A stretch of DNA of 64,000 nt from an uncultured Gammaproteobacteria bacterium (GCA_964486995.1 CAZAOV010000003.1:686-64685), one strand, 5' to 3'; shown: positions 13,209 through 41,342, numbered from the stretch's first letter. Notes: generated from the letters alone by a model not told the origin. Numbers and translations are program-made.

Positions 13209-15494
13209 ATGGGAAAAAAACAGCGCAGAAAAAAACGCGCGTTAGTGCAGGCATCGTTCGAGCGCTATCCGTTTTTGTTTAAGCTGATTGGCTGGCTGGC
13301 GGTATTGTCGTTGGCCGTGCCGCTGCTGAAGCGACCGCATGCCTACTTAGCTTCGTACTACACGCAGTTTACGGTGATGCAGATTTTGATTGAAGTGATG
13401 TTTGCGTGCTGGCTGATACTGGCGATTAAAGACCGGCGCTTCCGCCCGGATTGGCGAAGTCCAGCGTTGTGGGGCTTGCTGGCGTTTATCGGCACCATGC
13501 TCTTGGCGCTGCCGTTTGCGGTTGACCCAGCATATTCTTTTTGGTCGCGGCCGACGCGCATGACCGGTGTGATTAACTACCTGCACTATGGAGCGTGGCT
13601 GTTTGTGCTGTTGGCGACCTTCAAAAAACCGGAGCAGTATCGCAAGCTGTTGATTGCAACGTCCATAGTATCCATCGTGATCGGGTTGATAGGTTTCGCG
13701 GATTGGTGGGTCAATCCGGGGAGTACGGTGCAGTCCTATTTGGGTAACCCGTCGTTTTTCGGCGTGTACATGCTGCTTCATGCCCTAATTGGCGTGTATC
13801 TGCTGGCCGGAACCAAGACTGTTAAGTCGCGAATATTACCGGTGGTCACGATTGTCGTTGCGGTGGTATCAGTGTTTCTGTCCGGAAGTCGCGGTGCGGT
13901 TCTGACGCTGTTCGCTTCTGTTGTGATTGGGGCAATTATCTATTTTTTGTATTCAAAGACCTATCGACCAGTCAAAATATCCGTAATAGTTGCGCTTTTG
14001 GTTTTGGCAATTTCCGCCGTTGCCGGATTCGCACTGCTGCGGTCGGACAGCATGCGCGGCTGGGTGGATGAGCATCTGTCCGGTCCCACGCATCGTCTGA
14101 TCACCCGCGATTTCGGCAGTGACCGTTGGGTGCTTTGGAACTACGGTTGGCGAGGCGTGCTGGAGCGACCGTTATTCGGTTGGGGTATGGAACAATACGA
14201 GGTGTCGTTCTATAAGCATTACGATCCGCTCACTGAGGATGTGGAAATAATGAACGAGCAGTATGCGGATCGCGCGCATAATCAATATCTTGACGTGCTG
14301 ATTGCTTCTGGATTCTTCGGTTTGGTCGGTTATCTGGCGTTCTTGTTGTTGTTATTGCATTCAGCCTGGACAGCAGTCAGGAAATCGGAAAACTCTATCG
14401 CGCTGTTAAAAAATTCCGCCCTGTCCGCAGCCGTGCTCGCTTACTGCGGTTACGGACTGATTATGTTTGATACGCCCATGGCAGTGATGGTGTCGTTTTT
14501 GGCCTATGGAGTAATCGCGGCTAATTATCGAAAGGTGTGCGGGCCTGCTGAGCCGGAAGCCGAGCTGATAATATCCAATAATTCTTTAGCGCTGGCCGCA
14601 CCAATTTTGGTCATGATGTTTGTGGTGGTGCTGTTGGTGAATGTCATGCCAGCCGTAAAAATTTGGCAGACAGAGGAGGCCGTGAAACTCACCGACACCA
14701 ATCGCACGGCCGCGCTAGAGCAGTATAAAATCGCAACCACCGGATACAATCCTTATGCGCTTGATTTGCGGTTGCGCCTGCTCACCAAAATAAAAAAATG
14801 GTCAGAGAACGTATCACTGCAATCGTCGCAGTTGCAAAAGTTGGTTGAATATACGGTGCCACTCATGGAAGACGCGGCGACAAAACGATCCTATAACATG
14901 CGTTTCCAGTTGGCGGCGGCCGCGATGTTTAGGATTTTTGGCGACTACAATCCGGCGGCCTACGCCATAGCCGAGGAATATGCGCAGACAGTTATACAGA
15001 CCGCACCCGGCAGGCCTGAGGCATATATCGAGCAGGGTGAAATCGATATTACGCAGAATGATGCTGATTCAGCGATTCTATACCTAATGAAGGCAATAGA
15101 GCGGGTGCCAATCAAAAACAGGCATGTCAGTCGGTATATCTATTTCCGACTCGCGAGCGCATATGCGCTAAAGTGTGACCATCAAGAATCAAAGAAGAAC
15201 TTTGATATTGCGGCTGAATACGGCCATCCGCATCATAAAGACACGCGGTTCTTGCTTGATTTGGATCGCGGCTGTCGGTCGGACCGGGATTTTTCCTGGG
15301 TCGCCGATCATGTCGATCAGTTGCTGGTGGTGTATCCCGACCATCCCCGAGTTCTGCCGGCCGCCGCGCGCATATATATGCTCTCCGAACAGCCAGACAA
15401 AGCCGTGGAGATGGTCGAAAGATTAGATAAGAGAGACCCAGGTTCTGCCAGACAGCTAGCCGAAGAACTCGAATTAATTAACGAGGAGGAATAA
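13209..15494 (+). CDS. O-antigen ligase/polymerase (Wzy_C) domain membrane protein with C-terminal TPR-like repeats (paralog 1 of 4)
   Basis: Multi-TM N-terminal half with SGSRGAVLTLFASV and HNQYLDVLIASGFFGLVGYLAFL (WaaL/Wzy_C-like). C-terminal helical repeats. Lys-rich N-terminus. Confidence 0.7.
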   Translation: MGKKQRRKKRALVQASFERYPFLFKLIGWLAVLSLAVPLLKRPHAYLASYYTQFTVMQILIEVMFACWLILAIKDRRFRPDWRSPALWGLLAFIGTMLLALPFAVDPAYSFWSRPTRMTGVINYLHYGAWLFVLLATFKKPEQYRKLLIATSIVSIVIGLIGFADWWVNPGSTVQSYLGNPSFFGVYMLLHALIGVYLLAGTKTVKSRILPVVTIVVAVVSVFLSGSRGAVLTLFASVVIGAIIYFLYSKTYRPVKISVIVALLVLAISAVAGFALLRSDSMRGWVDEHLSGPTHRLITRDFGSDRWVLWNYGWRGVLERPLFGWGMEQYEVSFYKHYDPLTEDVEIMNEQYADRAHNQYLDVLIASGFFGLVGYLAFLLLLLHSAWTAVRKSENSIALLKNSALSAAVLAYCGYGLIMFDTPMAVMVSFLAYGVIAANYRKVCGPAEPEAELIISNNSLALAAPILVMMFVVVLLVNVMPAVKIWQTEEAVKLTDTNRTAALEQYKIATTGYNPYALDLRLRLLTKIKKWSENVSLQSSQLQKLVEYTVPLMEDAATKRSYNMRFQLAAAAMFRIFGDYNPAAYAIAEEYAQTVIQTAPGRPEAYIEQGEIDITQNDADSAILYLMKAIERVPIKNRHVSRYIYFRLASAYALKCDHQESKKNFDIAAEYGHPHHKDTRFLLDLDRGCRSDRDFSWVADHVDQLLVVYPDHPRVLPAAARIYMLSEQPDKAVEMVERLDKRDPGSARQLAEELELINEEE

Positions 15495-15495
15495 A

Positions 15496-17742
15496 GTGAC
15501 AGCGATGGGAAAGAAGAAACGCAACAAAAAAAACCTGGCTAATCAAGCTGCGACCAAGAAGAACGACGAGCAACCGTCAATGTTGCCGGCGCTGATATTC
15601 TTTTGCGGATTGCTGGCTTTGGTCGCTCCATTGCTGCCGTCTTCAGCGCCGTCCATACCGGTCACTCTGACACAGGCCTCAGTGTTTCAGGCATTGGTCG
15701 CTGTTATGGTCGCCGCGTGGATTCCGTTGGCGATTACTGATAGGCGCTATCGGCCGCATTGGGGACTGCTTACGTTCGCAGTGCTCGGCTACGGCGTCAT
15801 GATTTTGGTGTCGCTGGCGTTTAGTGCCGACGGAGATCTGTCGTTCTGGTCGCAGCTGTGGCGCATGACCGGTGTTTGGAACATGCTGCATTACGTGGCT
15901 TGGTTTGTTGTGTTGGCGTCGGTAATGAAGAGTCACAAGGATTGGCGGATATTTTTGGCGATAAGTTGCGCGTTTGCCTTATATGCCAGCCTGTACGGAT
16001 TAAAGCAATGGCTCGCCAGTCCGATGTCGGCTAGCGTGCGTTCAACGCTCGGCAATCAGTCATTACTGGCGGCGTACGTGTTACCGCATATTTTTATCGC
16101 TTGGTATTTGAATATCGCTAACCGTGCTTGGTCTAAGTATTTTTATTACACGGTGATGGTCGCATGTTCGGCCACGATAATTGTTTCTGCCAGTCGTGGG
16201 GCGGTGTTGGCCTGGGTGATTAGTGTCGCACTCGCCGTAGCGGCGCTCGTCGCTTTATCTAAGTGGCCGAGAAAGCGGCGGTTGGCGTTGGTCAGTCTGA
16301 TAATTACGTTACCGGTTCTGGCTATCGGTGCGGTACTGTTAATGCGCACGCCGGTTGCCAAAGAAGTGGTTACTTCGAACATAAGGGTACCGCGTTTTTT
16401 CAGTCGTGTGGTTTATCGCGATATCGGCGAGGACCGCAAGCTGCTTTGGTCTTACGCTTGGCGCGGATTCACGGAGCGACCCGTGTACGGATGGGGTAAC
16501 GAGATGTACGGCTATTTGTACGACTATTATTTTGACCATACCGGGGAAGATATCGTGATTTTCAATGAGCGCTGGCAAGACCGAGCGCATAATCAGTATC
16601 TGGATATTCTGGTTTCGTACGGTGTCATAGGAATGCTGTCGGTAATTCTGATTTGGTTCGCGGTCGGCAGGAAGCTGTGGCTGGCGTTTCGGGCGACCGA
16701 TGAGCGTACGGAAAAAAAGAGGTTGGCCATGCTGGCGGTATTTAGTGTTTGCTACCTGACTTATGTGCTGACCATTTTTGACACGCCGGCACAGTTAACC
16801 GTAGTTTTTGCGGTACTGGCCTTAATTGCGACTCTTTCTGTTGATGAGAAACATGATGAGCGGCTGACAAAAACAAACACCAGATTGCGTTTGGCAATTC
16901 TAGCTGTCTGCATTCCAATATCGCTGTATGTGATTTGGCTCAACATGGCGCCGGTGGTTCGGGCGGCAGCGGTGCATGAAGGGCTGATTGCCATTCGTTC
17001 AGATCGGCAGGACATGCGCGCGACTTTTTCCGGGGCGTTCAAGTGGCCCAACGCTTACGTTCACGGCATGCGGTACGCGGCCATATTTGAGGTGCAGAAG
17101 TATATGGAGCTTGCACAGTTGAATTCCGCAGATATGCACGATGGTCTTGAGTATCTAGTCGAGCAGGCGGTCGATTCGGCTGAAGATCGGCCGCTGACGT
17201 CAAGATACCTAATTGGTGCCAGTACAGCTCTGCGACTGCTGGCCATGCACGAGCCAGAGAAACTTGATGACGCCGAGATGTACGCGCAGAAAATTATCGA
17301 TTTGATGCCGAACCGGTTTGACGGTTATGCCGAAATGGCCGAGATCAATATTTTGCGAGGCGAATTCCAGGAGGCGATTGCACAGCTCAAGAAAGCCGAA
17401 GAACGCGTTTATGCCAGGCGCAGAGATTTACAATCCAGAATCTACATGCTGATGGCAACCGCGTACGCCGGATTGGGGCAGATTGATCGGGTGGTCGAAT
17501 GCACCCAAAAAGCCGGCGAGTTGGATCAGAACGCGTTCTTCGATTCTCGGTTGGCGATTATTCTGTCAAAGAATATTCAATTCGGTGACAACATCGTCGG
17601 CTTGGACGGATACCTAAACATATTGCAGAGCCGCTATTCGCAGGTTTCGCCGGTTATGCAGGCTGTGGCAAAGATTATTCAGGCTGGCTCCAGCACGTCA
17701 GTCGATGTTGGAACCACATCCTTAGATGAGTCAGCTAACTAA
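15496..17742 (+). CDS. O-antigen ligase (Wzy_C)-TPR membrane protein (paralog 2 of 4)
   Basis: Aligns along its length with paralog 1 (SASRGAVLAWVISV; HNQYLDILVSYGVIGMLSVILIW). GGAGGA RBS 5 nt before GTG(15496). ATG at 15505 is an alternative start. Confidence 0.7.
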   Translation: MTAMGKKKRNKKNLANQAATKKNDEQPSMLPALIFFCGLLALVAPLLPSSAPSIPVTLTQASVFQALVAVMVAAWIPLAITDRRYRPHWGLLTFAVLGYGVMILVSLAFSADGDLSFWSQLWRMTGVWNMLHYVAWFVVLASVMKSHKDWRIFLAISCAFALYASLYGLKQWLASPMSASVRSTLGNQSLLAAYVLPHIFIAWYLNIANRAWSKYFYYTVMVACSATIIVSASRGAVLAWVISVALAVAALVALSKWPRKRRLALVSLIITLPVLAIGAVLLMRTPVAKEVVTSNIRVPRFFSRVVYRDIGEDRKLLWSYAWRGFTERPVYGWGNEMYGYLYDYYFDHTGEDIVIFNERWQDRAHNQYLDILVSYGVIGMLSVILIWFAVGRKLWLAFRATDERTEKKRLAMLAVFSVCYLTYVLTIFDTPAQLTVVFAVLALIATLSVDEKHDERLTKTNTRLRLAILAVCIPISLYVIWLNMAPVVRAAAVHEGLIAIRSDRQDMRATFSGAFKWPNAYVHGMRYAAIFEVQKYMELAQLNSADMHDGLEYLVEQAVDSAEDRPLTSRYLIGASTALRLLAMHEPEKLDDAEMYAQKIIDLMPNRFDGYAEMAEINILRGEFQEAIAQLKKAEERVYARRRDLQSRIYMLMATAYAGLGQIDRVVECTQKAGELDQNAFFDSRLAIILSKNIQFGDNIVGLDGYLNILQSRYSQVSPVMQAVAKIIQAGSSTSVDVGTTSLDESAN

Positions 17743-17748
17743 ATAAAT

Positions 17749-20043
17749 ATGAGCAAGAAGAAACGACGACAAAAAGCAGTGTCGAATAAGCATTGGCTGT
17801 CGTGGCTGATTTACATTTGCGCATTGCTCGCTGTAGCCACGCCCCTGCTGTCGCCGTACTGGCCGCTGATTAATTACACCCAGATTAAAACTTTCACTTT
17901 TCAGGCACTGGTCGAGATAATGTTCGTGGCTTGGGTCGTCTTGGCGGTGGCGGACAAGCGCTATCGTCCACGCCGGAACGCCTTGTCAATAACGTTGCTG
18001 CTGTTTATGGGCGCGGTGCTCGCTTCCTTACCTTTCAGCATTGATTCATCGCTGTCGTTTTGGCATATCAGCAATCGCATGACCGGAGTGGTGACTTTGC
18101 TGCATATGGCAGCTTGGTTTTTTGTTCTAGCAAATTCGCTGCATCACCGTGACGAATGGATTAAGCTGTTTAAGATAAGCGGGCTGATTTGTTACGCCAT
18201 CTTAGCGGTTGATTTGGTGGTCTGGTCGGGCAATACGCAAACTTCGGCCATGAAAAAAATATTTGGCAACTCGTTCTACATGATTTCCTATGTCATGCCG
18301 CACGTGTTTCTTGGTCTATATCTGTGGCTACGAGAAAAAACCCATAAAAAATATTTTTGGCTTTCCTTGTCTGTGGTGGCGTCGGTGGCGATTGTATTGA
18401 CGGGAAGCCGTTCTGGAATTCTGGCGTTGATAATTTCGGTGTTCATAGCCGTGCTATGCCTGACGTTGATTTCAGACAAAAGCCGGGGGAAGCGAGCGCT
18501 GATAGTGGTCTTGAGTACGGTCCTTACGCTAGCCGCGGTCGGAGGTTTTTTTGGCTTGCGCACAGAAGCCGGTCGAAATTGGGTTGCTGAAGCCAGTTAT
18601 GTCCCAGGCGCATTTCATCGCATGGCTCACCGAGATTTTGGCGGCGATCGGCTGGCGTTATGGAATATGGCGCTCAAAGGTATAGCCGAACGACCGATTT
18701 TCGGTTGGGGCAATCTGCAGTTCCTGCACGTATCTTCGAAGTATCTGGATATCGACAGCAGTGCCCTAGAGGTACTGAACGAAAGCTGGCAGGACTCCTC
18801 GCACAATCAGTATTTGGATCATTTGATGCATTACGGTGTAGTTGGTTTTACGGCGTATTTGGCGATGTGGATTGGTGTGCTGGTGTTGTTGATCCGCACG
18901 TATCGTCGTGCGGAATCGCTGAACGACAAGCGCAGCTTGCTGTTGGTCGGGGTACTGTTCGTTAATTATCTTATATATACGGTGTTTATTTTTGATACAC
19001 CACAGATGCTGATGCTGATGTTTATGATGTTTGCTTGGCTGGTGTTTATGCGAACTGGGCAGCTCCAGACCGAAGATCAGGATATTCTGGTCGGTAATCC
19101 CTCGGTAACGCTGTTCATGGTTTTGTTGATACCCATGTTGATGTTCTGCTGGTTTGCTAACGGCCAGCATTACGTCGCACAAAAACATTGGATTGCCGGA
19201 GCCGCTGCGGTAAGCGGCGGCAACTGGACTAAAGCGGCGGATGAATTTGGTCAGGCATATGGAAATACATCCAATCCGTACATATACGAGCTGCGCACTT
19301 TTGCTATGGAGCCGACCAGGAATTCCGTCGATTATTATTTTTCTGGCGGTCAGGAGAACGAAGAGGGGATTGACCTGTATCTGAAGACAATGGCTGATGC
19401 CACGACCGCCAATGTGGATGATCATCCGACTAACCCCAAAGCACTCTTCTTGGCTGGGCAGACACATCGGTATTTATACAAAGTAGACGATGCCGCCTGG
19501 CAGCAATCATATGATTACGTTCAGCGGTATCTGGAGATGGCGCCTGATAGATTTGACGCACACCTGCAGATGGCCGAGCTGAATGCCTTACGCGGCAATT
19601 ATGAAGAGGCCCACAAATGGTTCGATTCCGCTTACGAGCGACATTTTCGACTTTCAAGGCAATACGGCGGATTCATTCTGTATCGAAAAGCCTGCATCTA
19701 CGCTCGTCAGCGAAATTTTTCCGCGTTGGCCGAGACTATCTCGAAAAGCGCCAAGGTTTTTCCTGGCCATAAAGATGCGCGCTTAATTCTGATAATGGGA
19801 GAGGTGGTGCAAGAAGGTGATAACTTGAGCGGTTTTGAACCGTTCCTTGATCTTGCCATGACTCATTTTCAGCATGATGTAGAAGTGTTGACCGCTGGTG
19901 CGCGGCTGTATCATGTGCTGGGTCATAACGACATGGTTAGTCAGGTTCTCGAAGTTCCGGCCATGGTGGAATGGGGCAATTCCGAGGAAGGACGGGGACA
20001 ATATGATGCCCTAAAGAGAGAATTGGGCTACATTGAGTGGTAA
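17749..20043 (+). CDS. O-antigen ligase (Wzy_C)-TPR membrane protein (paralog 3 of 4)
   Basis: TGSRSGILALIISV; HNQYLDHLMHYGVVGFTAYLAMW; C-terminal RFDAHLQMAELNALRGNYEEAHKWF TPR-like repeat. Confidence 0.7.
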   Translation: MSKKKRRQKAVSNKHWLSWLIYICALLAVATPLLSPYWPLINYTQIKTFTFQALVEIMFVAWVVLAVADKRYRPRRNALSITLLLFMGAVLASLPFSIDSSLSFWHISNRMTGVVTLLHMAAWFFVLANSLHHRDEWIKLFKISGLICYAILAVDLVVWSGNTQTSAMKKIFGNSFYMISYVMPHVFLGLYLWLREKTHKKYFWLSLSVVASVAIVLTGSRSGILALIISVFIAVLCLTLISDKSRGKRALIVVLSTVLTLAAVGGFFGLRTEAGRNWVAEASYVPGAFHRMAHRDFGGDRLALWNMALKGIAERPIFGWGNLQFLHVSSKYLDIDSSALEVLNESWQDSSHNQYLDHLMHYGVVGFTAYLAMWIGVLVLLIRTYRRAESLNDKRSLLLVGVLFVNYLIYTVFIFDTPQMLMLMFMMFAWLVFMRTGQLQTEDQDILVGNPSVTLFMVLLIPMLMFCWFANGQHYVAQKHWIAGAAAVSGGNWTKAADEFGQAYGNTSNPYIYELRTFAMEPTRNSVDYYFSGGQENEEGIDLYLKTMADATTANVDDHPTNPKALFLAGQTHRYLYKVDDAAWQQSYDYVQRYLEMAPDRFDAHLQMAELNALRGNYEEAHKWFDSAYERHFRLSRQYGGFILYRKACIYARQRNFSALAETISKSAKVFPGHKDARLILIMGEVVQEGDNLSGFEPFLDLAMTHFQHDVEVLTAGARLYHVLGHNDMVSQVLEVPAMVEWGNSEEGRGQYDALKRELGYIEW

Positions 20044-20089
20044 GAATAACTTGTTGATGACATGCCGAAGTTATGCCGAAGCGTGTTAA

Positions 20090-22336
20090 GTGAGTACAAC
20101 TATGGTTTACGCAAATAATAAAATCGCCTCTTGGATGCTTTTGGCAGTCGTAGTCAGTATTGCTGCCATAATTGTGGCCGTGCCGTTATTGCCGGCCTGG
20201 ACTAGTTACACAACCTGTATTTTTTCCGAGGCGACTTTTTTTCAAATCGCGGTGGAGGTGATGCTGGCAGCATGGATACCGCTGGCCTTAGCCACACCAA
20301 GGTTTCGACCGCGTCGAAGTTGGCTTACCGGGGCGGTTGTATTTTACGCCGTCGTTATGATGGCATCTTTGTTTTTTGCGGTTGATCCATCTCTGTCAGC
20401 CTGGTCAAAAGTCACTCGCATGACCGGTGTCATCAATATGCTGCATATTGTTGGCTGGTTTTTGGTCTTGTCTTCCTCGCTGCGCGGCATCAGACAGTGG
20501 CGTTTTCTGCTCACTGCCAGCGTCGTTGTCAGCACCCTAATCAGCATAATCGCCATTATCGAAGGTGTGGCCGGATCAGGTCCTGTTGTGGCTACCATGT
20601 GCAACCAATCATTTTTGGCCGCTTATCTTCTGCCTCATGTGGGGATTGCAATGTTTTTGCTGTTCAGGGAGAAGCAATGGTTCTTTCGTGTAGCTCTATT
20701 GACCACCTCGACCATTCTGCATCTGATTGCGATGTATTTTTCTGCCAGTCGGTCGGGCATGCTGGCGTCACTTATTTTGGTGGCATCGTTCTTGGTGGTG
20801 TTGGTAGCTAGAACAAAGTTTAAGGCGCATAACAGGCGCTTTCTTGTCGCCCTGATTATTATTGCGTTTTGTGCGGTCATCGGGGCGGTCATCGGGCTAC
20901 GTTATTTGTCGGCCGTGGGTAAGTTGGACGCAAATCTGCCTCGACCCGTCAGCCGTCTGGTGCTGAAGGATTTTGGTGATGACCGGTTAGTTTTATGGAC
21001 ATATGCTTGGCGCGGTTTTATGGAGCGGCCCATATTCGGCTGGGGTAACGAACAGTTCAGCACGCTTTATAGCCAGCACTACAACCCGGCCGGTTTGGAT
21101 AAATACGTGTTTAATGAACGATGGCAGGATCGAGCGCATAATCAGTATCTAGATTCACTGGTGTCTTATGGAATTTTCGGGTTTTTGGCCTTTGTATTGA
21201 TTTGGGCGCTGGCCATTAAGCGGGTGCGTTCGTTGTATCGTGATGACGTGCTGGATGTTTATCAGTCATCGATGCTGATGTCGGTGTTTGTGGCGTTGAT
21301 GCTGTTTTACGCGTTCAATTTTGATACGCCGGCCGCGCTTATCGTAATTTACATGTTGTTTGCGTTCTGCGTTGGGGTCAGTCCGCCGCGCCGCGACGAT
21401 CGATTGTTCCATTCGGCTATGTTGGGTGCGGCGTTGATTACCATCAGTTTTGCCGTTGTGGGAATTAGGTTCATAAATGTGGTTCCGGCCATGAGCATGA
21501 AGACTTTCAGCGAAGCCGAGTCAACAATTTTGACCGATGGCATGAAATCGTTCGAAAAATATAGCGTGGCGCTGAAGGGTGTCGGCCCATACAGAAATGA
21601 TTTTAGGCTCAACCACCTGTTTGCCATCCAAAAATATGTCGATCACGCCGGAATGCGCGGTATGCCCCTGGAAACTCTAGTCCGTCAGGCAGTGCATGAA
21701 ACCAAAGATATGGTCGGTGATGCGCCGTACGACTATCGATCGCATTTGGCTAATGCGGTAGCTAATCGGCTAATGGCAGAGTTCGGCGAAGACACCATTC
21801 AAACCGCAAAGGTCAGCGCGCAAAAGGCTCTTGAGTTGGCGCCGACGCGATTTGACGCTCACTTTGAGTTGGGTGAGATTAGTTTAGCTGCGCGGAATTA
21901 TAGACAGTCCGAGCATCATTTTATGCGTGCCATTGAGTATTCTTATTGGAATTTGGCCGGTTTTGATGAATTGGTCTATTATCGCTTAGCTCAGCTGTAC
22001 GTTGAGCAAGGTGATTATGCTATGGCTCGGGAGTGGTTGGCACGCAGTCAGGCGGGTGCGGCATATCCGGCCACTCAAGATGCCAGACTGGTCATGGCCA
22101 TGGATAACCTGTTGGAGACGGATCAGGCCGCATCTGCATTTGCGTTCACATCTTATGTTGATGCGACATTGAATAATTTTATCGTTCATCCGGAGTTGCA
22201 CGCCGCTGCGGCAAGGTATTATGCGGCATTGGGCAACAAGAATCGTGCCGCTCAAATCGTAAATGGCATGGTCGCCACTACACCCGCTTTGGCTCGGCAG
22301 TTGGTAGAAGAATTGGACTTGCCGTTTACTGAATAA
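20090..22336 (+). CDS. O-antigen ligase (Wzy_C)-TPR membrane protein (paralog 4 of 4)
   Basis: SASRSGMLASLILV; HNQYLDSLVSYGIFGFLAFVLIW; C-terminal RFDAHFELGEISLAARNYRQSEHHF. Confidence 0.7.
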   Translation: MSTTMVYANNKIASWMLLAVVVSIAAIIVAVPLLPAWTSYTTCIFSEATFFQIAVEVMLAAWIPLALATPRFRPRRSWLTGAVVFYAVVMMASLFFAVDPSLSAWSKVTRMTGVINMLHIVGWFLVLSSSLRGIRQWRFLLTASVVVSTLISIIAIIEGVAGSGPVVATMCNQSFLAAYLLPHVGIAMFLLFREKQWFFRVALLTTSTILHLIAMYFSASRSGMLASLILVASFLVVLVARTKFKAHNRRFLVALIIIAFCAVIGAVIGLRYLSAVGKLDANLPRPVSRLVLKDFGDDRLVLWTYAWRGFMERPIFGWGNEQFSTLYSQHYNPAGLDKYVFNERWQDRAHNQYLDSLVSYGIFGFLAFVLIWALAIKRVRSLYRDDVLDVYQSSMLMSVFVALMLFYAFNFDTPAALIVIYMLFAFCVGVSPPRRDDRLFHSAMLGAALITISFAVVGIRFINVVPAMSMKTFSEAESTILTDGMKSFEKYSVALKGVGPYRNDFRLNHLFAIQKYVDHAGMRGMPLETLVRQAVHETKDMVGDAPYDYRSHLANAVANRLMAEFGEDTIQTAKVSAQKALELAPTRFDAHFELGEISLAARNYRQSEHHFMRAIEYSYWNLAGFDELVYYRLAQLYVEQGDYAMAREWLARSQAGAAYPATQDARLVMAMDNLLETDQAASAFAFTSYVDATLNNFIVHPELHAAAARYYAALGNKNRAAQIVNGMVATTPALARQLVEELDLPFTE

Positions 22337-30284: not shown

Positions 30285-31322
30285 GTTGCACCACCCTGTG
30301 GCAGTATGACCCCTTAGAACATGACACCGAACGACATGCAACACAGGGAACTTTCGCTTCCCGAGCGGCAGTTCCTGGAGGTCCGGCTGCTCGGCAAGTG
30401 GAGCCTGCGGCGGACCGCTACAGCCATGGGCCGGGATCACTCGGCCCTCTCGAGGGAGGTCAGGAACAACCGCTGCCCGGACGGCAGGTACCGCGCGGCC
30501 GAGGCACAGCGACGGTCCGAGGCCGGGAAGCGCCGCTCCGGCCGGGGGCGCAAGCTCGACCGGGACCGGGCGCTGGCGGACTGGGTGACGGACAGGCTCC
30601 GGGACGGATGGTCGCCGGAGAGGATCGCCGGGAGGCTGAAGGCCAGTCCGCCGGAGGGCCTCGAGGGCCGGACGTTGAGCCACGAGACGGTCTACCGCTG
30701 GCTGTACGACGGGGACGGGCGGTACGGCGGGCTGTACAAATACCTCTGGTCGAGACGGAAACGGCGGTACGCGAGGAGGGGCAGGAAGCCGAAAATGGCC
30801 ATGACTGAGGGAAAAGTGCCGCTCTCGGAGCGTCCCGCGGACGGCCTGCCGGGGCACCTAGAGACCGACTCGATGGTCTGGTACGGGTCGAGGGGGCTGC
30901 TCTCGGCCCAGGTCGACCGGGCCACGCTCGCCTGCCGGCTGCGGTGGTGCCCGGACCGGACGGCGGAGGAGACGGCGCACGCGCTGCGGCGCGCGGTCGA
31001 GACCCTGCCGCACCGGTTCGTGCGGGACGTGGCCTTCGACAACGGCTCCGAGTCCGCCCGTCACGGAATCCTCGGCGAGGAGTACGGCATACCGACCTAC
31101 TTCTGCGAGCCGTACTCGCCCTGGCAGAAGTCGCAGGTCGAGAACCTGAACCGCACGATTCGGCACTGGGTGCCGAGGAAAACGAAAGCCCACGACCTTG
31201 CGGCCGTGGACTGGAAGACGCTCGAGGACTGGCTGAACAACCTCCCTCGAAAGTCACTGGGATACCTTACGCCGAACGAGGCGATTAATCAATACCTGTC
31301 AGGTGGTGCAACTGAAACTTGA
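30285..31322 (+). mobile_element. IS30-family insertion sequence (about 1.03 kb) with imperfect terminal inverted repeats. GC about 70% versus about 50% in the flanks.
   Basis: IRL GTTGCACCACCCTGTGGCAGTA (30285-30306). IRR TACCTGTCAGGTGGTGCAAC (31293-31312), whose reverse complement is GTTGCACCACCTGACAGGTA. Encloses one transposase ORF. Confidence 0.8.
30321..31322 (+). CDS. IS30-family DDE transposase
   Basis: N-terminal HTH (WSLRRTATAMGRDHSALSREV). DDE triad context: HLETDSMVW, AFDNGSE, PYSPWQKSQVENLNRTIR. The stop codon lies just past the IRR. Confidence 0.9.
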   Translation: MTPNDMQHRELSLPERQFLEVRLLGKWSLRRTATAMGRDHSALSREVRNNRCPDGRYRAAEAQRRSEAGKRRSGRGRKLDRDRALADWVTDRLRDGWSPERIAGRLKASPPEGLEGRTLSHETVYRWLYDGDGRYGGLYKYLWSRRKRRYARRGRKPKMAMTEGKVPLSERPADGLPGHLETDSMVWYGSRGLLSAQVDRATLACRLRWCPDRTAEETAHALRRAVETLPHRFVRDVAFDNGSESARHGILGEEYGIPTYFCEPYSPWQKSQVENLNRTIRHWVPRKTKAHDLAAVDWKTLEDWLNNLPRKSLGYLTPNEAINQYLSGGATET

Positions 31323-31440
31323 ACTTCCGTAGATAATATATTATTTCGCAGTAAGATTGTTGACATTTTTTGCTGGTCATGATACAATCGCGTGCTCTAG
31401 AGGCGGCATGGTGTCGCATCGGAAGCAGGGAGGATGTGAT

Positions 31441-32349
31441 ATGAAGCTTAGGTCTTTCGCTATGTCTATCGTGGTGGCAGTCATCGCGTTCAGCAGCTTT
31501 GGCTGCGGTTCGCAGGATATTCCACCGGCCATGCGCGGGCAGATGTACGACGCTACGGGCGCGGCTGCGCTCTGGATGTCCGGTGGTCAGGGTCTGACCG
31601 GTCCCGTTCTGGGTCCTGGGACCTATTACACCGGTCTTTATGACAGCATCCGCATGGTAGACTGTTCAGAGTCCGTAGAGCACGAGGGTCTCTCCAGTCT
31701 CACCCGCGACGGTATCCAGTTTGGCCTGGAGGCAGAGATTACCTATTCCATCGACTGTTCGGATGATGTGGTTGGCAAGGTGCTGACTACGCTGCGGCCG
31801 AACGAGCAGGGGGTGATTTCCAGCAAGTCAGCCTACTTGCGTTACGTGCGGCCGTCCATTCGTGAGGTGGTTCGTGAGGCTATTGCGCCGCATATGGCCA
31901 ACGAGGTCAACTCCGAGCGTGACGCCATCATCAACGAGATTCAGAGCAGCTTCATCAAGTCCATGCAGGACGGCAACCGGCGCTTCGTTAAGGTGTCGAC
32001 GCTGGCGCTGACCAACATGGATTTCCCGGAGAAGCTCGACCAGGCGAACGTGGACCGAGCTCAGCAGGACATTTTGCGCGAAAAAGCCATTGCCGAGCGC
32101 GAGCGGGTTGAGGCCGAGACCGAGACCGCGCGCATGCGCAAGCAGCTGCGCACTCGTGAAGGTGAAGCCGAGGCCGCTCGTATCGATATCATCGGGAAGG
32201 CGCTTCAGCGTTACCCTGAATATCTGCGTTACGACATGCAGCAGCGGATGAGTGGTATTTATCGTGAGGCCGGCCAACAGGGCAACATGGTCATTACGGC
32301 ACCTGATCCCAATATTATGATTCAGCCGCCAACCAAGTCGGGGCAGTAG
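31441..32349 (+). CDS. SPFH/band-7 (stomatin/prohibitin-like) domain protein with signal peptide/TM and a C-terminal coiled coil
   Basis: LTRDGIQFGLEAEITYSI SPFH core. Coiled coil AQQDILREKAIAERERVEAETETARMRKQ. The track ORF starts at 31357; MKLRSFAMSIVVA at 31441 is the more likely start. GC about 60%. Confidence 0.65.
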   Translation: MKLRSFAMSIVVAVIAFSSFGCGSQDIPPAMRGQMYDATGAAALWMSGGQGLTGPVLGPGTYYTGLYDSIRMVDCSESVEHEGLSSLTRDGIQFGLEAEITYSIDCSDDVVGKVLTTLRPNEQGVISSKSAYLRYVRPSIREVVREAIAPHMANEVNSERDAIINEIQSSFIKSMQDGNRRFVKVSTLALTNMDFPEKLDQANVDRAQQDILREKAIAERERVEAETETARMRKQLRTREGEAEAARIDIIGKALQRYPEYLRYDMQQRMSGIYREAGQQGNMVITAPDPNIMIQPPTKSGQ

Positions 32350-33288: not shown

Positions 33289-33357
33289 CTCGCGATATAA
33301 TATATGGTAGATTAACGCGCTGACTTTGGTCGGCGTGTTTTCAAAAATGGAGACGAC

Positions 33358-33741
33358 ATGAGTGATGTCTGTGAGGTCGACGCACAGCACTGCTGTGAAG
33401 ATGAGTACTATGAGGAATTTTTCGATGAGGAAGATGTTGCGTTTCCGTTCGAGCCGTGGCCACTGATGCCGTATCCGCCGATGTTGTACACGCGTTGGCG
33501 ATTGCCCAAGCATCTCGAGGAGGGGCATAGGACGGGGGATCCAACCATGAAGCAGGCCACCTGGCTGTTTCGGACTAAGCGCCCGCGACTTCATGTGAGC
33601 TCTTTGCCGGCGGTGTGTCGCGTTGCGCGGAACATGGCTAGGCGGTTAGCGGCCAGACAGAACGTGCTGTTCGCGCGTCGCCCGTTTCGGGATAGGCATA
33701 TCGTCGTTCCGAGTCGTCGGTGTGTTAAAATAAATCTATGA
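33358..33741 (+). CDS. Hypothetical protein (acidic N-terminus, basic C-terminus)
   Basis: GGAGA RBS 5 nt upstream. No domain recognised. An overlapping minus-strand ORF is less convincing. Confidence 0.3.
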   Translation: MSDVCEVDAQHCCEDEYYEEFFDEEDVAFPFEPWPLMPYPPMLYTRWRLPKHLEEGHRTGDPTMKQATWLFRTKRPRLHVSSLPAVCRVARNMARRLAARQNVLFARRPFRDRHIVVPSRRCVKINL

Positions 33742-33843
33742 ATCGAAGCCGTCTGTAAGGGGCGGTTTTTTGTTTTCGTATGGTTGTCCAGCTTTGGTTG
33801 GGTGCTATAGTATTTACGTTTCTATCAATGTACCCACAAACTT

Positions 33844-34041
33844 ATGCGCGACGGAACAAACCGAGCGGACATCTACCCCGGTCTGGCGGTAGCGATTACG
33901 CTTAAAAAAGACCAAGGCACCAACAAGCTAACGCAGGGTTTTGTTAAGGATATCCTCACCAACAAACCGTTTCACCCGCGTGGCATAAAAGTGCGGCTCG
34001 ACACCGGCGAGGTTGGTCGGGTGCAGGTGATTGTTGATTAG
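33844..34041 (+). CDS. YwbE-family small protein (DUF2196)
   Basis: 65 aa with GIKVRLDTGEVGRVQVIV, characteristic of the YwbE family. Confidence 0.55.
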   Translation: MRDGTNRADIYPGLAVAITLKKDQGTNKLTQGFVKDILTNKPFHPRGIKVRLDTGEVGRVQVIVD

Positions 34042-34163
34042 TTGCGTACGAAAAATCGTCAGATAGTCTAATAAAGCACATATCCACATATCGAACCTGT
34101 TTTCGCTTGTGGATATGTGTTTATATTTTGTCATAGCTCATTAAAAAAATAGAGGAGGTTAAA

Positions 34164-35426
34164 ATGACGACTGGCGCTCCGATTGCTGGGGGCAAGACCA
34201 AGATTATTTACGCCGATCCGCTTAATCCGCACCTAGTGACGATTCAATCCAAGGATGATCTTACCGCTGGTGACGGTGCCAAGCACGATGTGATGGCCGG
34301 CAAGGCCGTGATGGCCAATCAGACCACGTGCAATAACTTTCGGTTCTTGAGCAAATGCGGCGTAGAGTCCGCGTTTCTGCAGCAGCTCGGCGACACCGCG
34401 TTTCAGGCCGTTAAATGCGACATGATTCCGCTCGAGGTGGTAACGCGGCGCGAGGCTCACGGGTCGTTTTTGAAGCGCGAACCGCAGTTGCACAAGGGTC
34501 ATCTGTTTCCACGATTGCGCGTTGAGTTTTATCTGAAGACCGCAGGTGGGATGTGGCGAGCACAGCCGCTTCAGAAAGATGATCCGTATATGCTGCTGAG
34601 CGAAGATGGCTTGGCTCATTTGTATCGACCGGATCAGCCGTTCGTTGGTGCGCAGTCGTTTTTGACCATCAGCGACGCGCCGCTCGACGCCGACCCGGCG
34701 AAGTACGCCGAGCTTGATGGTGTTGCACGCCATGTTTTTCTCGCACTCGAGAAAGCCTGGCAGTTGCAGGGGCGGCGGCTGGTGGACATGAAAATCGAAT
34801 TCGGTATCGGGCCGTCCGGAAAAATTATGCTCGCCGACGTTATCGACAATGACTCGTGGCGGGTGCTCGAGGAGGGTCAGTACATCGACAAGCAGGTGTA
34901 TCGCGACGGCGGTGCGCTAGAGGCGGTGTCCTCGCGCCACAAAAAGGTGATGCAGCTTACCGGACAGTTTCAGTGCCCGCCGCAGCAGATAATTATCTGG
35001 CGCGGTTCCGAATCCGACAACGTGGATTTGTATCCAGAGACTTTTTACTCCATCGTCAACGACTGGTCGTGCCGATTGGAGTTTGTTGCCTGCTCGATGC
35101 ACAAGAATCCAGAACGCGGACTGGAACAACTGCGCAACATGCTGCAGGAACGACCAGACTCAGTGGTGATCGCGCACATTGGACGAAGTAACGGCGCCGG
35201 TCCGACCATCGCCGCGCATACCAATGTGCCGGTAATCACCGTACCTGCATCGTATCGCGAGTTTCCGAACGACGTTTGGTCGTCCCTGCGCACGCCGAGC
35301 GATGTGCCGGTCATGACCGTGCTCGAACCGAAAAACGCCACGTTCGCCGCGATTCGTATTCTCGGTCAGCGTAACCCTGCTCTGTATGCGCCCATACGCC
35401 TGCGGACCGAAGATCATTGGGCCTAG
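34164..35426 (+). CDS. Bifunctional PAICS-like fusion: SAICAR synthetase (PurC) N-terminal domain + class II AIR carboxylase (PurE) C-terminal domain
   Basis: PurC domain: GKTKIIYADP..LTAGDGAK, IPLEVVTRREAHGSFLKR, LVDMKIEFG. PurE domain: IIIWRGSESD, SMHK (class II SAHK-type rather than class I SAHR), GRSNGAGP, DVWSSLRTPS (close to the human PAICS C-terminal domain). Confidence 0.8.
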   Translation: MTTGAPIAGGKTKIIYADPLNPHLVTIQSKDDLTAGDGAKHDVMAGKAVMANQTTCNNFRFLSKCGVESAFLQQLGDTAFQAVKCDMIPLEVVTRREAHGSFLKREPQLHKGHLFPRLRVEFYLKTAGGMWRAQPLQKDDPYMLLSEDGLAHLYRPDQPFVGAQSFLTISDAPLDADPAKYAELDGVARHVFLALEKAWQLQGRRLVDMKIEFGIGPSGKIMLADVIDNDSWRVLEEGQYIDKQVYRDGGALEAVSSRHKKVMQLTGQFQCPPQQIIIWRGSESDNVDLYPETFYSIVNDWSCRLEFVACSMHKNPERGLEQLRNMLQERPDSVVIAHIGRSNGAGPTIAAHTNVPVITVPASYREFPNDVWSSLRTPSDVPVMTVLEPKNATFAAIRILGQRNPALYAPIRLRTEDHWA

Positions 35427-35493
35427 CAATAATTTTATGACCGTACGATATGTGCGGTTTTTTGTTTGCTAAACCGGACCGCTCGTAATAGAA

Positions 35494-37227
35494 TTGGCTC
35501 ATCAAATATTAATTATCAAACATATGCCTGGTAGCAAAAATGCCGCACTGACCATGATTCTAATTGCGGCGATAATCGCACTGATTGGATATTTTTTGTT
35601 TAGGGATGATTTCTCGCCGCCGGAGCCCGCTCCATCAGAAGCCGAAGCCGAGGAACAAGTCACCACCTTGGGCGGGCAAATTATTTACGTCGAAGGTGCA
35701 GTCGAATGGCGTCGGGCTGGTGGCGAATGGTTGCGTGCCGGCACCGGCATCAATCTGAGTGAGGGCGATTCGGTGGAAACGCTCATCGGCGGGAGGGTGA
35801 TTGTAAGTTTGGACGACGGTAGTATGTTGCGGTTGGATTCTGAATCCAGGCTCACGTTATCATCAATGGATCCGGAACATATGATTGTTTCCAACAACAG
35901 CGGTTCGGTTTACTCACGCGTCGTGCAGTCCGAACGCGTGTTCGAGGTGCAGGCTGACGACATCATTTACGAATCACTGGGTACGGCCTACCTGACGCAC
36001 AATAAAGAAAAACTCAAAGGTGTAGAGGTGTACCACAGCAAGGTGAAAGTCAAAGACGCCGAAAACAACGAAATTATCGTAGACGAAGGCAAGATGTATT
36101 TCACATTGCATACGGATGAACCGGATTCGGCCGGTAAGGTGTTTGACATCGATAAGGAGCAGGCGCAGAAAGACGATTTCATTAAATGGAACAAGGATGA
36201 GGATTACATCAAGTTTAAAGATCATCTCGGCTATCTGGCTGATAGCGACGAGTCGCTAGTGGAAAGCATCGCGCTCGAAAATAGTGGTGGCAGTCAGGTG
36301 AGTTGGCGGGCATCGAGCGAATCCGTGTCCGGCTACAAGCTGGTCTGGTCCAAGACTTCCGGCCCGACCTATCCGATCCGCGATACCGATCAATACATAT
36401 ATTATGATGACCCGACCGTGAGCAGTGGCGAGGTTTATCCGTTCGACGGGGCCGGCACTTATTACGTACGTGTCTGCGAATATCTTAACGGTCCGTGCGG
36501 GGAGTATTCGAATGAGGTGACGGTAGAATTGGAGACCGAAGAGACAGATTTTAGTTCGGCTAAAGCTGTACCAGAAGACGAGAAATATGAAGTGTCGAAC
36601 GAGAAAAAAAACGAGCCGAAATCCGGCGGTGTAACCTCCATCAGCGCAACCGCAAATGATTCTGGTGCGGTAAGCTGGATTGTTGACGGTTATTCGGCGC
36701 AGGGCTACAAAGTGGTCTGGTCTAAAAATCCAGGTCCAGCCTACCCGACCCGCAGCGGCGACCGCTATGAGTATTATTCAGATTCCTCGCGTCGTTCCGG
36801 TTCGGTGTGGGCTTTTTCCGGTGACGGTACCTACTACGTTCGCGTTTGCGAATATCTCGGCGGCCGATGCGGCGTGTATTCGAATCAGGTGACGGTTGAT
36901 TTAGCTGGAAAAACCAAAGACGTTTCAGACAGTGGTGACGTTGACGGACAAGTGCTCGGGCTAACAATAACCTCAGGAAGCGGCGGTAATGTCAGATGGG
37001 CAGTGAACGGCTATTCAGAAATGGGATTTAAGGTAGTTTGGTCCAAGAACCCCAGCCCCACCTACCCGACCCGCAGCGGCGACCGGTATCTGTATTACGA
37101 CGATCCGTTTCGTGTCGCGGCGCTCGTCGAGGCTTTCGACGGTCCAGGCACTTACTATGTGCGAGTTTGTGAATACCTTGGTGGAAAATGCGGCGTGTAC
37201 TCGAATGAGATTTCAATAGAGATGTAA
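35494..37227 (+). CDS. Membrane-anchored FecR-domain protein with three C-terminal tandem repeats of about 110 aa, each with a conserved Cys pair
   Basis: FecR-like: GGQIIYVEGAVEWRRAGGEWLRAGTGINLSEGDSVETLIGGRVIVSLDDGSMLRL. Repeat unit GYKVVWSKNPGP.YPTRSGDRY.YY...GTYYVRVCEYLGG.CGVYSN occurs three times. Confidence 0.6.
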   Translation: MAHQILIIKHMPGSKNAALTMILIAAIIALIGYFLFRDDFSPPEPAPSEAEAEEQVTTLGGQIIYVEGAVEWRRAGGEWLRAGTGINLSEGDSVETLIGGRVIVSLDDGSMLRLDSESRLTLSSMDPEHMIVSNNSGSVYSRVVQSERVFEVQADDIIYESLGTAYLTHNKEKLKGVEVYHSKVKVKDAENNEIIVDEGKMYFTLHTDEPDSAGKVFDIDKEQAQKDDFIKWNKDEDYIKFKDHLGYLADSDESLVESIALENSGGSQVSWRASSESVSGYKLVWSKTSGPTYPIRDTDQYIYYDDPTVSSGEVYPFDGAGTYYVRVCEYLNGPCGEYSNEVTVELETEETDFSSAKAVPEDEKYEVSNEKKNEPKSGGVTSISATANDSGAVSWIVDGYSAQGYKVVWSKNPGPAYPTRSGDRYEYYSDSSRRSGSVWAFSGDGTYYVRVCEYLGGRCGVYSNQVTVDLAGKTKDVSDSGDVDGQVLGLTITSGSGGNVRWAVNGYSEMGFKVVWSKNPSPTYPTRSGDRYLYYDDPFRVAALVEAFDGPGTYYVRVCEYLGGKCGVYSNEISIEM

Positions 37228-40291: not shown

Positions 40292-40371
40292 TCATTCCCG
40301 CGAAGGCGGGAATCCATGATTCATCAGCTAGAGCGTTTCCGCACCGTGGATTCCCGCCTTCGCGGGAATGA
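40292..40371. promoter_or_regulatory. Pair of 25-bp palindromic sites in inverted orientation (TCATTCCCGCGAAGGCGGGAATCCA ...30 nt... TGGATTCCCGCCTTCGCGGGAATGA) upstream of the TolB-like gene
   Basis: Exact reverse-complement copies were read from the sequence. Each is itself a hairpin (attcccgc/gcgggaat). Confidence 0.55.
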
Positions 40372-40394
40372 CAGTGTCATCGAGTCATTTTTTT

Positions 40395-41342
40395 ATGAAA
40401 CCACGCACAAAAATTATTGTTTTAATTATCGTCGCGGTTATGGTGATTTGGCTTTCGATTGCTTCAAATCAGGAGGCGTATGTCCCACCGGCGCGCGAAA
40501 GCAAAATTCCAGACGACATCGAAAAGATGACACCGGAGCTGGATCCGCTTCCGCCGATTTTACATTCGGATGAATTCGAGACGCCGGTACCGCTTGCGGT
40601 AATTAATACCGCCGGCGGGGAAGATTCAGCGTTCATCCCAGAAAGCGGCGATGAGTTGTATTTCTTTTTTACACCCGACGTGCGCGTACCGGTCGAACGG
40701 CAGGTTACCGATGAGGTCACCGGAATCTATGTCTCCAGGGACATCGACGGTGCCTGGCAGGAGCCAACCCGAGTCATGCTGCAAAAACCAGGTAAGCCTT
40801 CGCTCGACGGTTGCCAGTTCGTGCAGGGTGACTACATGTTGTTTTGCTCTGTGCGCGAGGGCTATGCCGGAATACATTGGTTTTCCGCCGAGCGTAAGAA
40901 TAATCGGTGGGTGAACTGGCGGCTGGAAGATTTCGATCCAGAATACGACGTCGGCGAACTTCATATCCACGGTGACGAGCTTTATTACCACTCGCACTAT
41001 CCCGGCAACCAAGCTGACTATAATATATGGAAGATGAAGCGCGTTGACGGTGAGTGGCAGAATTCGGTGCTAGTCACAGCAGTGAGTTCTAATGTAAATG
41101 ACGGTTGGCCGTACATCACTCCAGACGGCAGCGAACTCTGGTTCACTCGCTGGCATTCCGGCTCGCCGGCGATATTTCGCTCCAAACGCGTGCAAGACCA
41201 GTGGCAAGAATCTGAACTAATAGTCTCCCAATTCGCCGGCGAACCAACTCTCGATCGCGACGGCAATCTATATTTCACGCATCATTACTACGAGAATGGC
41301 GAGATGCTCGATGCTGATATCTACGTCGCCTACAAAAAATAG
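40395..41342 (+). CDS. Membrane-anchored WD40-like beta-propeller (PD40/TolB-like) repeat protein
   Basis: PD40-type repeats: GGEDSAFIPESGDELYFF, DGWPYITPDGSELWFT, AGEPTLDRDGNLYFT. The TM helix follows MKPRTK (track ORF starts at 40368). Confidence 0.6.
   Translation: MKPRTKIIVLIIVAVMVIWLSIASNQEAYVPPARESKIPDDIEKMTPELDPLPPILHSDEFETPVPLAVINTAGGEDSAFIPESGDELYFFFTPDVRVPVERQVTDEVTGIYVSRDIDGAWQEPTRVMLQKPGKPSLDGCQFVQGDYMLFCSVREGYAGIHWFSAERKNNRWVNWRLEDFDPEYDVGELHIHGDELYYHSHYPGNQADYNIWKMKRVDGEWQNSVLVTAVSSNVNDGWPYITPDGSELWFTRWHSGSPAIFRSKRVQDQWQESELIVSQFAGEPTLDRDGNLYFTHHYYENGEMLDADIYVAYKK

Follow-up and report, generated by a model that had tools for sequence, protein, structure and literature searches.

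A putative PAICS-type PurC-PurE fusion enzyme of a Patescibacterium and its little-studied bacterial family

Two classes of PurE are known on the route by which aminoimidazole ribonucleotide (AIR) becomes phosphoribosylaminoimidazole-succinocarboxamide (SAICAR) during purine synthesis. Class II PurE is the human form, and PurK together with class I PurE is the form of most microbes (PMC10484210); the fused protein PurCE has been termed 'common in eukaryotes' (PMC3261824). In one of these two papers a rationale for antimicrobial targets is built on the difference between the classes. Here we describe a gene at positions 34164–35426 of a 64,000-nt stretch of DNA deposited as an uncultured Gammaproteobacteria bacterium (GCA_964486995.1, CAZAOV010000003.1:686-64685; the whole stretch is hereafter called the window), in which a SAICAR synthetase (PurC) domain is joined to an AIR carboxylase (PurE) domain. 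It is likely that the product is a PAICS-type enzyme that works in de novo purine synthesis of a Patescibacterium and takes AIR to SAICAR without the help of PurK. The same fusion is common among bacteria, so that the gene is an ordinary representative of a bacterial family that has received little study, and was not imported from a eukaryote.

Both halves of the protein were recognised by Pfam. SAICAR_synt (PF01259, E=5e-40) matched in two stretches, the best covering residues 8–127 and the second lying beyond it, and AIRC (PF00731, E=1e-20) matched C-terminal to them. An original prediction, made from the sequence of the window, had read the open reading frame (ORF) as a full SAICAR synthetase followed by an AIR carboxylase in the order of animal PAICS, and the Pfam matches and the PAICS alignments agree with it. 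Among the sequences of all solved structures, the best matches, far beyond chance, were PAICS from Bombyx mori (4JA0) at E=6e-57 and from human (2H31) at E=2e-55, and in each the two domains aligned in the same order; stand-alone PurC scored E=3e-24 and stand-alone PurE E=7e-8 or weaker. Identity to human PAICS is 39% over 350 aligned residues. When the PurE domain was used as the only query, PAICS sequences again came first (E=4e-13), with stand-alone PurEs at E=2e-8 and above. An AlphaFold model of the monomer, built on a 20-sequence alignment, reached a pLDDT of 87.4 and a pTM of 0.88, residues 368–378 being its sole low-confidence stretch. The best whole-chain matches of this model in the PDB, found with Foldseek, were human PAICS 6YB8 (E=1e-33, TM 0.70) and Bombyx PAICS 4ja0, with TM scores of 0.67–0.70, and stand-alone PurC structures superposed on the PurC domain at TMt 0.85–0.92. 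Each feature of sequence or structure that was tested for a PAICS-type fusion and for a class II PurE was found in the protein, with the exception of the Ala of the SAHK loop.

To compare the active sites, the residues of human PAICS, with their roles as listed in PMC9376930, were mapped onto the fusion protein through a HMMER alignment. In the SAICAR synthetase (SAICARs) site, 20 of the 22 mapped human residues are identical (G10, K11, T12, K13, T34, A35, G36, E91, V93, K125, M209, K210, E212, D225, D230, S231, W232, R233, K243 and R247 in the window protein), the exceptions being N43->D and F129->Y. The human residues tested in this site included G16–K19, T40–G42, E97, K131, K191, E193, D207, D212–R215, K228 and R232; human D133 and D137 lie where the PurC domain has an insertion that does not align. 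In the AIR carboxylase (AIRc) site, human S274, S276, D277, S301, H303, K304, G330, R331, S332, N333 and G334 are all identical to their counterparts S282, S284, D285, S311, H313, K314 and G340–G344. This set contains every residue whose side chain acts on the substrate in the quantum-mechanical (QM) study (S274, S276, D277, S301, H303, K304 and R331) as well as the water-bridging S332. The differences from human to window protein are M272R, T275E, A302M, V328H, A329I and L335A, at positions for which no catalytic side-chain role is given, A302 contributing its backbone NH (PMC9376930). All key AIRc residues are thus present and the domain is not degenerate, a check by alignment that the original prediction had called for. 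In a 20-member alignment of the family, S282 and D285 are invariant, as are G340 and S342–P347, and R341 is present in 115 of the 117 members of a larger alignment.

The PurE domain agrees with class II at all three of the blocks that separate the classes. The catalytic loop, the 70s loop and the third loop read SMHK, GRSNGAGP and WSSLRTPS in the window protein, SAHK, GRSNGLGP and WSSLRLPS in human PAICS, and SAHK, GRSNALSG and YSSLRMPS in the class II PurE of Treponema denticola. The blocks quoted in the original prediction (SMHK at residues 311–314, GRSNGAGP at 340–347 and DVWSSLRTPS at 370–379) are all in place and align to SAHK, GRSNGLGP and DVWSSLRLPS of the human enzyme, and the proposed assignment to class II, not class I, is upheld by the His-Lys, GRSN and SSLR-PS signatures. 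The coordinates of these elements are collected in Table 1.

Table 1. Features of the fusion gene and its immediate flanks, in window coordinates
Feature	Coordinates	Strand	Details
Predicted bifunctional PurC-PurE (PAICS-type) gene, complete	34164..35426	+	420 aa, ATG start; ORF list, Pfam, PAICS alignment, AlphaFold model
SAICAR synthetase (PurC) domain	34164..34958	+	residues 1-265; PF01259 in two stretches
Class II-type AIR carboxylase (PurE) domain	34989..35396	+	residues 276-411; PF00731
GKTK ATP-binding loop, PurC domain	34191..34202	+	residues 10-13 = human G16-K19; invariant in 20-member alignment
Ribose-phosphate binding loop S282-E-S284-D285, PurE domain	35007..35018	+	= human S274, S276, D277, identical
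Catalytic loop S311-M312-H313-K314, class II His-Lys	35094..35105	+	= human S301-A302-H303-K304
'70s loop' G340-R-S-N-G-A-G-P347, class II type	35181..35204	+	= human G330-R331-S332-N333-G334 (GRSNGLGP)
Conserved class II loop D370-V-W-S-S-L-R-T-P-S379	35271..35300	+	human DVWSSLRLPS, T. denticola DIYSSLRMPS; class I SLFSIVQMPGG
Shine-Dalgarno GAGGAGG	34152..34158	+	5 nt 5' of ATG, read from sequence
Terminator-like hairpin then T-run	35439..35459	+	13 nt 3' of stop codon; consensus scan, no proof of function alone
Strong hairpin in the gap between ywbE and the fusion gene	34076..34120	+	U-rich tract after; arms 34077-34088, 34108-34119

By analogy with the animal and T. denticola enzymes, the conserved residues suggest that the protein is active. 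The C-terminal class II PurE would place CO2 directly onto C4 of AIR to give carboxyaminoimidazole ribonucleotide (CAIR), with neither ATP nor PurK; His313 would serve as the base, Ser311 would hold the imidazole, and Lys314, Arg341, Ser282 and Ser284 would hold the phosphate. The N-terminal SAICAR synthetase would join CAIR to aspartate, with ATP/Mg, to form SAICAR. We infer that the protein assembles into an octamer, and that the enzymes which make AIR and consume SAICAR are encoded elsewhere in the genome.

Relatives of the protein are numerous. A word-indexed search of 5.8 billion proteins (90% clustering) gave 3115 matches, the best 120 of which are all PurC+PurE fusions of 419–538 aa with 48–60% identity; named sources include Xanthobacteraceae, Hyphomicrobiales, Pseudolabrys, Verrucomicrobiota, Chthoniobacteraceae and Gracilibacteria. 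In a scan of one genome per species at least 560 genomes carry a relative, and the best 80 are essentially all full-length. About a dozen of these 80 are Patescibacteria (Staskawicz-, Vogel-, Giovannoni- and Taylorbacteria, Paceibacterota, Gracilibacteria and Saccharibacteria), and Tepidisphaerales and Polyangiaceae also possess the family. When 1.84 billion cluster representatives were searched exhaustively with HMMER, 423 clusters were retrieved at E≤1e-30. In the 117-member alignment the catalytic Ser and His are near-invariant and the Lys invariant, while residue 312 is V in 60 members, I in 28, L in 15, M and A in 6 each and T in 2. Because this residue varies so across the family, the S-[V/I/L/M/A]-H-K loop is a trait of the clade, and SMHK is nothing peculiar to the window copy; SAHK is kept in the animal-related clade of the tree. 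The JGI family names give both activities ('phosphoribosylaminoimidazole carboxylase / phosphoribosylaminoimidazole-succinocarboxamide synthase') and the NCBI names only one ('SAICAR synthase' or 'AIR carboxylase family protein'), so that bifunctionality is under-annotated in NCBI records.

Several members and near-members of the family deserve mention in their own right. About 42 cluster representatives (including P0300, P0302, P0307 and P0309) are 257–330 aa long and contain the PurC half only, at 41–49% identity and E values down to 1e-68; these are either stand-alone PurCs of a 'PAICS-like' subfamily or fragments. Archaeal PurCs that resemble those of eukaryotes more than those of other archaea have been noted (PMC3261824), and this group may be identical with them. 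The protein nearest to that of the window, P0003 (L082:10001-11275), has Leu in place of the near-invariant Arg341 and Met in place of Trp372, although purH lies next door; in the QM study the human equivalent of Arg341, R331, shifts toward the substrate phosphate (PMC9376930). Another fusion, P0296 (L086:8001-9347; GCA_024449895.1, JAANSX012452938.1), has an SGHK loop and GMSNG and stands in a phage-like context, with a DEAD-box helicase, a DnaB-type helicase, a dCMP deaminase, an HNH endonuclease and numerous short ORFs on the same strand as neighbours; its clade in the tree is a large, unlabelled one made up of fusion clusters. Two scans of IMG/VR yielded phage genes with PurC only, at 31–37% identity, and not one full-length fusion.

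The host is a Patescibacterium, and Uhrbacteria are among the named groups most closely related to it: the DnaK encoded in the window is 86–88% identical to proteins labelled 'Patescibacteria group bacterium' and 75–84% identical to those of Candidatus Uhrbacteria. P0003, at 60% identity to the window protein, is encoded on a metagenome contig (L082). Fifteen genes, with FtsX (23532) at one end and an ABC ATPase (43977) at the other, are collinear between this contig and the window; the proteins are 36–92% identical and the fusion gene occupies the same slot. In L082, purH is located between an HD-domain gene and the fusion gene, to which it is divergently adjacent, and in the window this place is held by an ORF of 127 aa and ywbE. 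When window 33289–34163 was compared with L082:5743-9881, the window proved to be without two radical-SAM genes and purH. Further window genes without a counterpart in L082 are an SPFH gene (31357–32349), a FecR-domain gene (35494–37227) and an ORF at 40368–41342.

Gene neighbourhoods in other relatives were read from pre-annotated contexts and by targeted tblastn; greedy longest-ORF calling with BLAST clustering of neighbours, applied to 80 loci, was dropped since spurious antisense ORFs were chosen in high-GC genomes. Linkage of the fusion gene to other pur genes was found repeatedly. It is clustered with purB and purH in a vogelbacterium (L055), a taylorbacterium (L076) and a further locus (L058), the last of which has a purM-like gene beside purH (TIGR00878, 163 bits, below cut-off). 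In one locus (L083) it follows a purB that scores 361 bits on TIGR00928, above cut-off; elsewhere it adjoins purH (L077), purB (L048) or, probably, purB (L074). On a 19.6-kb metagenome contig (L088) an SAHK-type fusion lies within a purH-PurCE-purM-purS-purQ-purL-guaB-guaA operon, with pyrC/pyrF/pyrE-like genes (by Pfam domain) upstream on the opposite strand. In the Alphaproteobacteria-like and Verrucomicrobiota-like contexts examined, and in L084, L085 and L087, the fusion gene is away from pur genes. Housekeeping pur genes commonly lie apart from other pur genes. By tblastn, no locus showed a further purC or purE standing alone close to the fusion gene, and a Pfam scan of 113 Patescibacteria neighbour proteins placed no purF, purD or purN families, but one FolD-like protein, among the best 25 of the 130 families hit.

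In the window itself, Pfam scans of 41 ORFs including the target, with the ORFs at 15496–22336 and 54665–62386 outside the scan, revealed neither another pur gene nor an ATP-grasp PurK-like gene. Searches of the full 64 kb by tblastn with purH, purB and both fusion domains did not find another pur gene either, and for remnants of purH or purB there was nothing below E=0.5. The flanking genes, DUF2196/YwbE (33844–34041) and the FecR-domain gene, are unrelated to purine synthesis, as had been stated at the outset. The description of the gene as an 'isolated two-step module' is thus correct for the window but not beyond it, since purB, purH and a purM-like gene stand close to the fusion in relatives. 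This linkage speaks for an ordinary role in purine synthesis, and most simply purH and the remaining pur genes would be located elsewhere in the genome.

Some observations weigh against an active enzyme of the purine pathway. The gene stands alone: the purH adjoining its closest relative is absent, and the 64 kb hold no purH or purB remnant and no other pur gene. Between the catalytic Ser and His there is Met312, where all characterised class II enzymes have Ala and the clade has V, I, L or M; we regard this as variation within the clade that does not exclude the domain from class II, because in human PAICS the residue acts through its backbone NH. The two top NCBIfam models for the protein are purC and purE, but the scores (80.8 bits against a cut-off of 189.9 for purC, and 68.6 bits against 149.6 for purE TIGR01162) are under the curated cut-offs, which implies a sequence divergent from the canonical bacterial enzymes. 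Finally, our literature search gave no enzyme assay for any bacterial PurC-PurE fusion, and no paper describing such a protein.

Among the alternatives, an orphan or salvage module fares best, and we regard it as unlikely. The genome would have lost the upstream and/or downstream pathway, and the enzyme would use AIR scavenged from a host (or phosphorylated AIR riboside), or be kept for some other reason. Such a loss would fit the absence of purH from the syntenic slot that it holds in the closest relative and the absence of pur genes from the 64 kb. It would also fit the biology of the Candidate Phyla Radiation (CPR), whose genomes frequently have gaps in nucleotide synthesis and often lack a complete pathway (PMC8407418); in one survey about two thirds of CPR metagenome-assembled genomes (MAGs) were without a complete de novo purine module, which was present in ∼32% of 399 (PMC11608272). 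The earlier remark that reduced genomes often lack purine synthesis is therefore borne out by these gaps, but has to be tempered by the complete modules. On the other hand, gene order is silent on the rest of the genome, and L084, L085 and L087 likewise have the fusion away from pur genes. The rate of evolution is equal for the window copy and its purH-linked sister, and the window copy has kept all catalytic residues, as expected in a working pathway, and SAICAR is useless without PurB and PurH. A more specific proposal, to which we give similarly little credence, is that the gene stands alone as what is left of a 'lower-half' purine module, in which purH was shed from an ancestral purH/PurCE locus, the AIR-making steps were perhaps lost, and AIR or its riboside from a host is processed. 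If true, this would be scavenging of purines at the level of intermediates, which has not been described for CPR bacteria.

It is very improbable that the gene is a decaying or catalytically dead relic left after the loss of the neighbouring purH. The loss of purH from the syntenic position would be consistent with decay, and at 148 highly conserved columns the window copy shows 8 deviations (E9G, L61F, Q163A, P165S, L169I, Y259H, L349I and R418H), which is the tied maximum in the 117-member set. However, all eight are non-catalytic, the sister has 6, and the mean identity to the 115 other family members is 54.1% for the window copy and 54.3% for the purH-linked sister, so that the rate is not raised. 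There is no frameshift or stop codon, the ribosome-binding site is strong and all catalytic residues are kept. We thus see no sign of decay or relaxed constraint, and a pseudogene was rejected on the intact ORF, the kept catalytic residues and the unchanged rate.

Equally hard to sustain is a PurE domain of class I, that is, an N5-CAIR mutase dependent on a PurK encoded elsewhere. The raw score of the Thermotoga maritima class I PurE (E=2e-8) is slightly better than that of the T. denticola class II enzyme (E=4e-7), but the motifs tell otherwise. The T. maritima protein has SAHR in the catalytic loop, GGAAHLPG in the 70s loop and FSIVQMPG in the third loop; the window protein has His-Lys and not His-Arg, GRSNG and not GGAAHLPG, and SSLR-PS and not S-VQMPGG, and the best matches of its domain are PAICS carboxylase domains. 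The class I reading was rejected on the class II motifs at all three blocks.

As to the origin of the gene, a bootstrapped distance tree joined the window protein and P0003 as sisters (96%) and placed animal PAICS in a clade of its own (97%), inside a 100%-supported group far from the window protein. The GC content and the GC content at third codon positions (GC3) of the fusion gene are 0.57 and 0.68, compared with 0.56 and 0.71 for DnaK. Since the gene lies in the same slot of a collinear contig and resembles its neighbours in GC and GC3, it is vertically inherited, and the suggestion of horizontal acquisition in the original prediction, at least of a recent one, is not sustained. The label 'eukaryote-style' fared no better, the nearest relatives being all bacterial-type fusions. 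Recent acquisition of an animal-type PAICS from a eukaryote, to which the shared domain order and the striking similarity of the motifs to human PAICS might point, is the least probable of the alternatives and was rejected on the separate placement of animal PAICS in the tree, the 15-gene synteny, the neighbour-like GC and GC3, and the dozens of bacterial-type fusion clusters that are nearer (E from 1e-127; nearest named relatives 53–60% identical) than the animal type (E≤1e-55, 39%).

Local signals around the gene were also surveyed. The hairpin in the gap downstream of ywbE has perfect 12-bp arms, extended to ∼15 bp, and an RNA fold of –29.4 kcal/mol (z=–3.2); it is probably the ywbE terminator, and no counterpart is kept upstream of the L082 orthologue. 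The 127-aa ORF upstream of ywbE (33358–33741) is unannotated and is followed by a terminator-like hairpin at 33745–33769. Three tRNAs were all that an Rfam scan of the 64 kb detected; neither a purine nor a ZTP riboswitch came up. An IS30-like transposase gene (HTH_38 + rve, 30321–31322), overlapped by several long spurious ORFs, lies about 3 kb upstream of the fusion gene; its GC of 0.68 and GC3 of 0.87, against a mean GC of 0.51 for the window, make it a probable recently inserted foreign element. Further away, at 13209–22336, four consecutive same-strand ORFs encode proteins of 748–764 aa, the first with Wzy_C (O-antigen ligase-like) and TPR repeats, and are preceded by two GT4 glycosyltransferases and a sugar transferase; the region resembles a locus for surface polysaccharide in which paralogues are arrayed in tandem. 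A single ORF of 2573 aa occupies 54665–62386 on the + strand.

PAICS-type fusions are widespread and diverse in prokaryotes, against the picture in the literature of class II PurE and PAICS as human or eukaryotic. Databases already annotate the bacterial fusions, and none of them seems to have been characterised. In CPR biology, genes of this kind point to the lineages that are still able to make their own purines. The operon-embedded fusion of L088 (P0329; within L088:6464-16653, JGI metagenome 3300020193, Ga0194131_10004966) has an SAHK loop, is 46–50% identical to human and Bombyx PAICS, and falls in a clade with metazoan PAICS representatives at 100% bootstrap in the distance tree. This placement points to an exchange of the fused gene, in one direction or the other, between prokaryotes and the lineage of animals. 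Leads that follow from these data are the prokaryotic relatives of animal PAICS, the S-[V/I/L/M]-H-K variant and the possibility that some CPR bacteria keep only the lower half of the pathway.

Among known systems, the canonical route of PurK, class I PurE and PurC (structures from E. coli, A. aceti and T. maritima) achieves the net conversion of AIR to SAICAR that the window protein would carry out. The PurE and PurC folds are homologous, but the canonical route relies on ATP-dependent PurK, an N5-CAIR mutase with SAHR and GGAAHLPG, and three separate polypeptides. Among class II PurEs, the characterised enzyme from a bacterium, that of T. denticola (3RG8), shares S-x-H-K, GRSN, SSLR-PS and the fold (TMt 0.76) with the C-terminal domain; it differs in being a stand-alone protein of 159 aa with SAHK and no fusion to PurC, and its match is weak. 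Uncharacterised bacterial PurC-PurE fusions are the protein's own family, with 53–60% identity, equal length and the invariant motifs in common. Within them the window copy and P0003 form a divergent pair (54% identity to the rest, compared with 65% among the rest), and several patescibacterial orthologues adjoin purB or purH, whereas the window copy does not. Among characterised fusions, animal PAICS (human 2H31/6YB8 and B. mori 4JA0) shares the domain order, PurC N-terminal and class II PurE C-terminal, and the catalytic residues of both sites. It is set apart by SAHK in place of SMHK and by the N43->D and F129->Y differences in the SAICARs site, and the window protein has ∼24 extra residues in its PurC domain relative to human PAICS, within roughly residues 127–187, a bacterial host, and a place in a separate clade of the tree.

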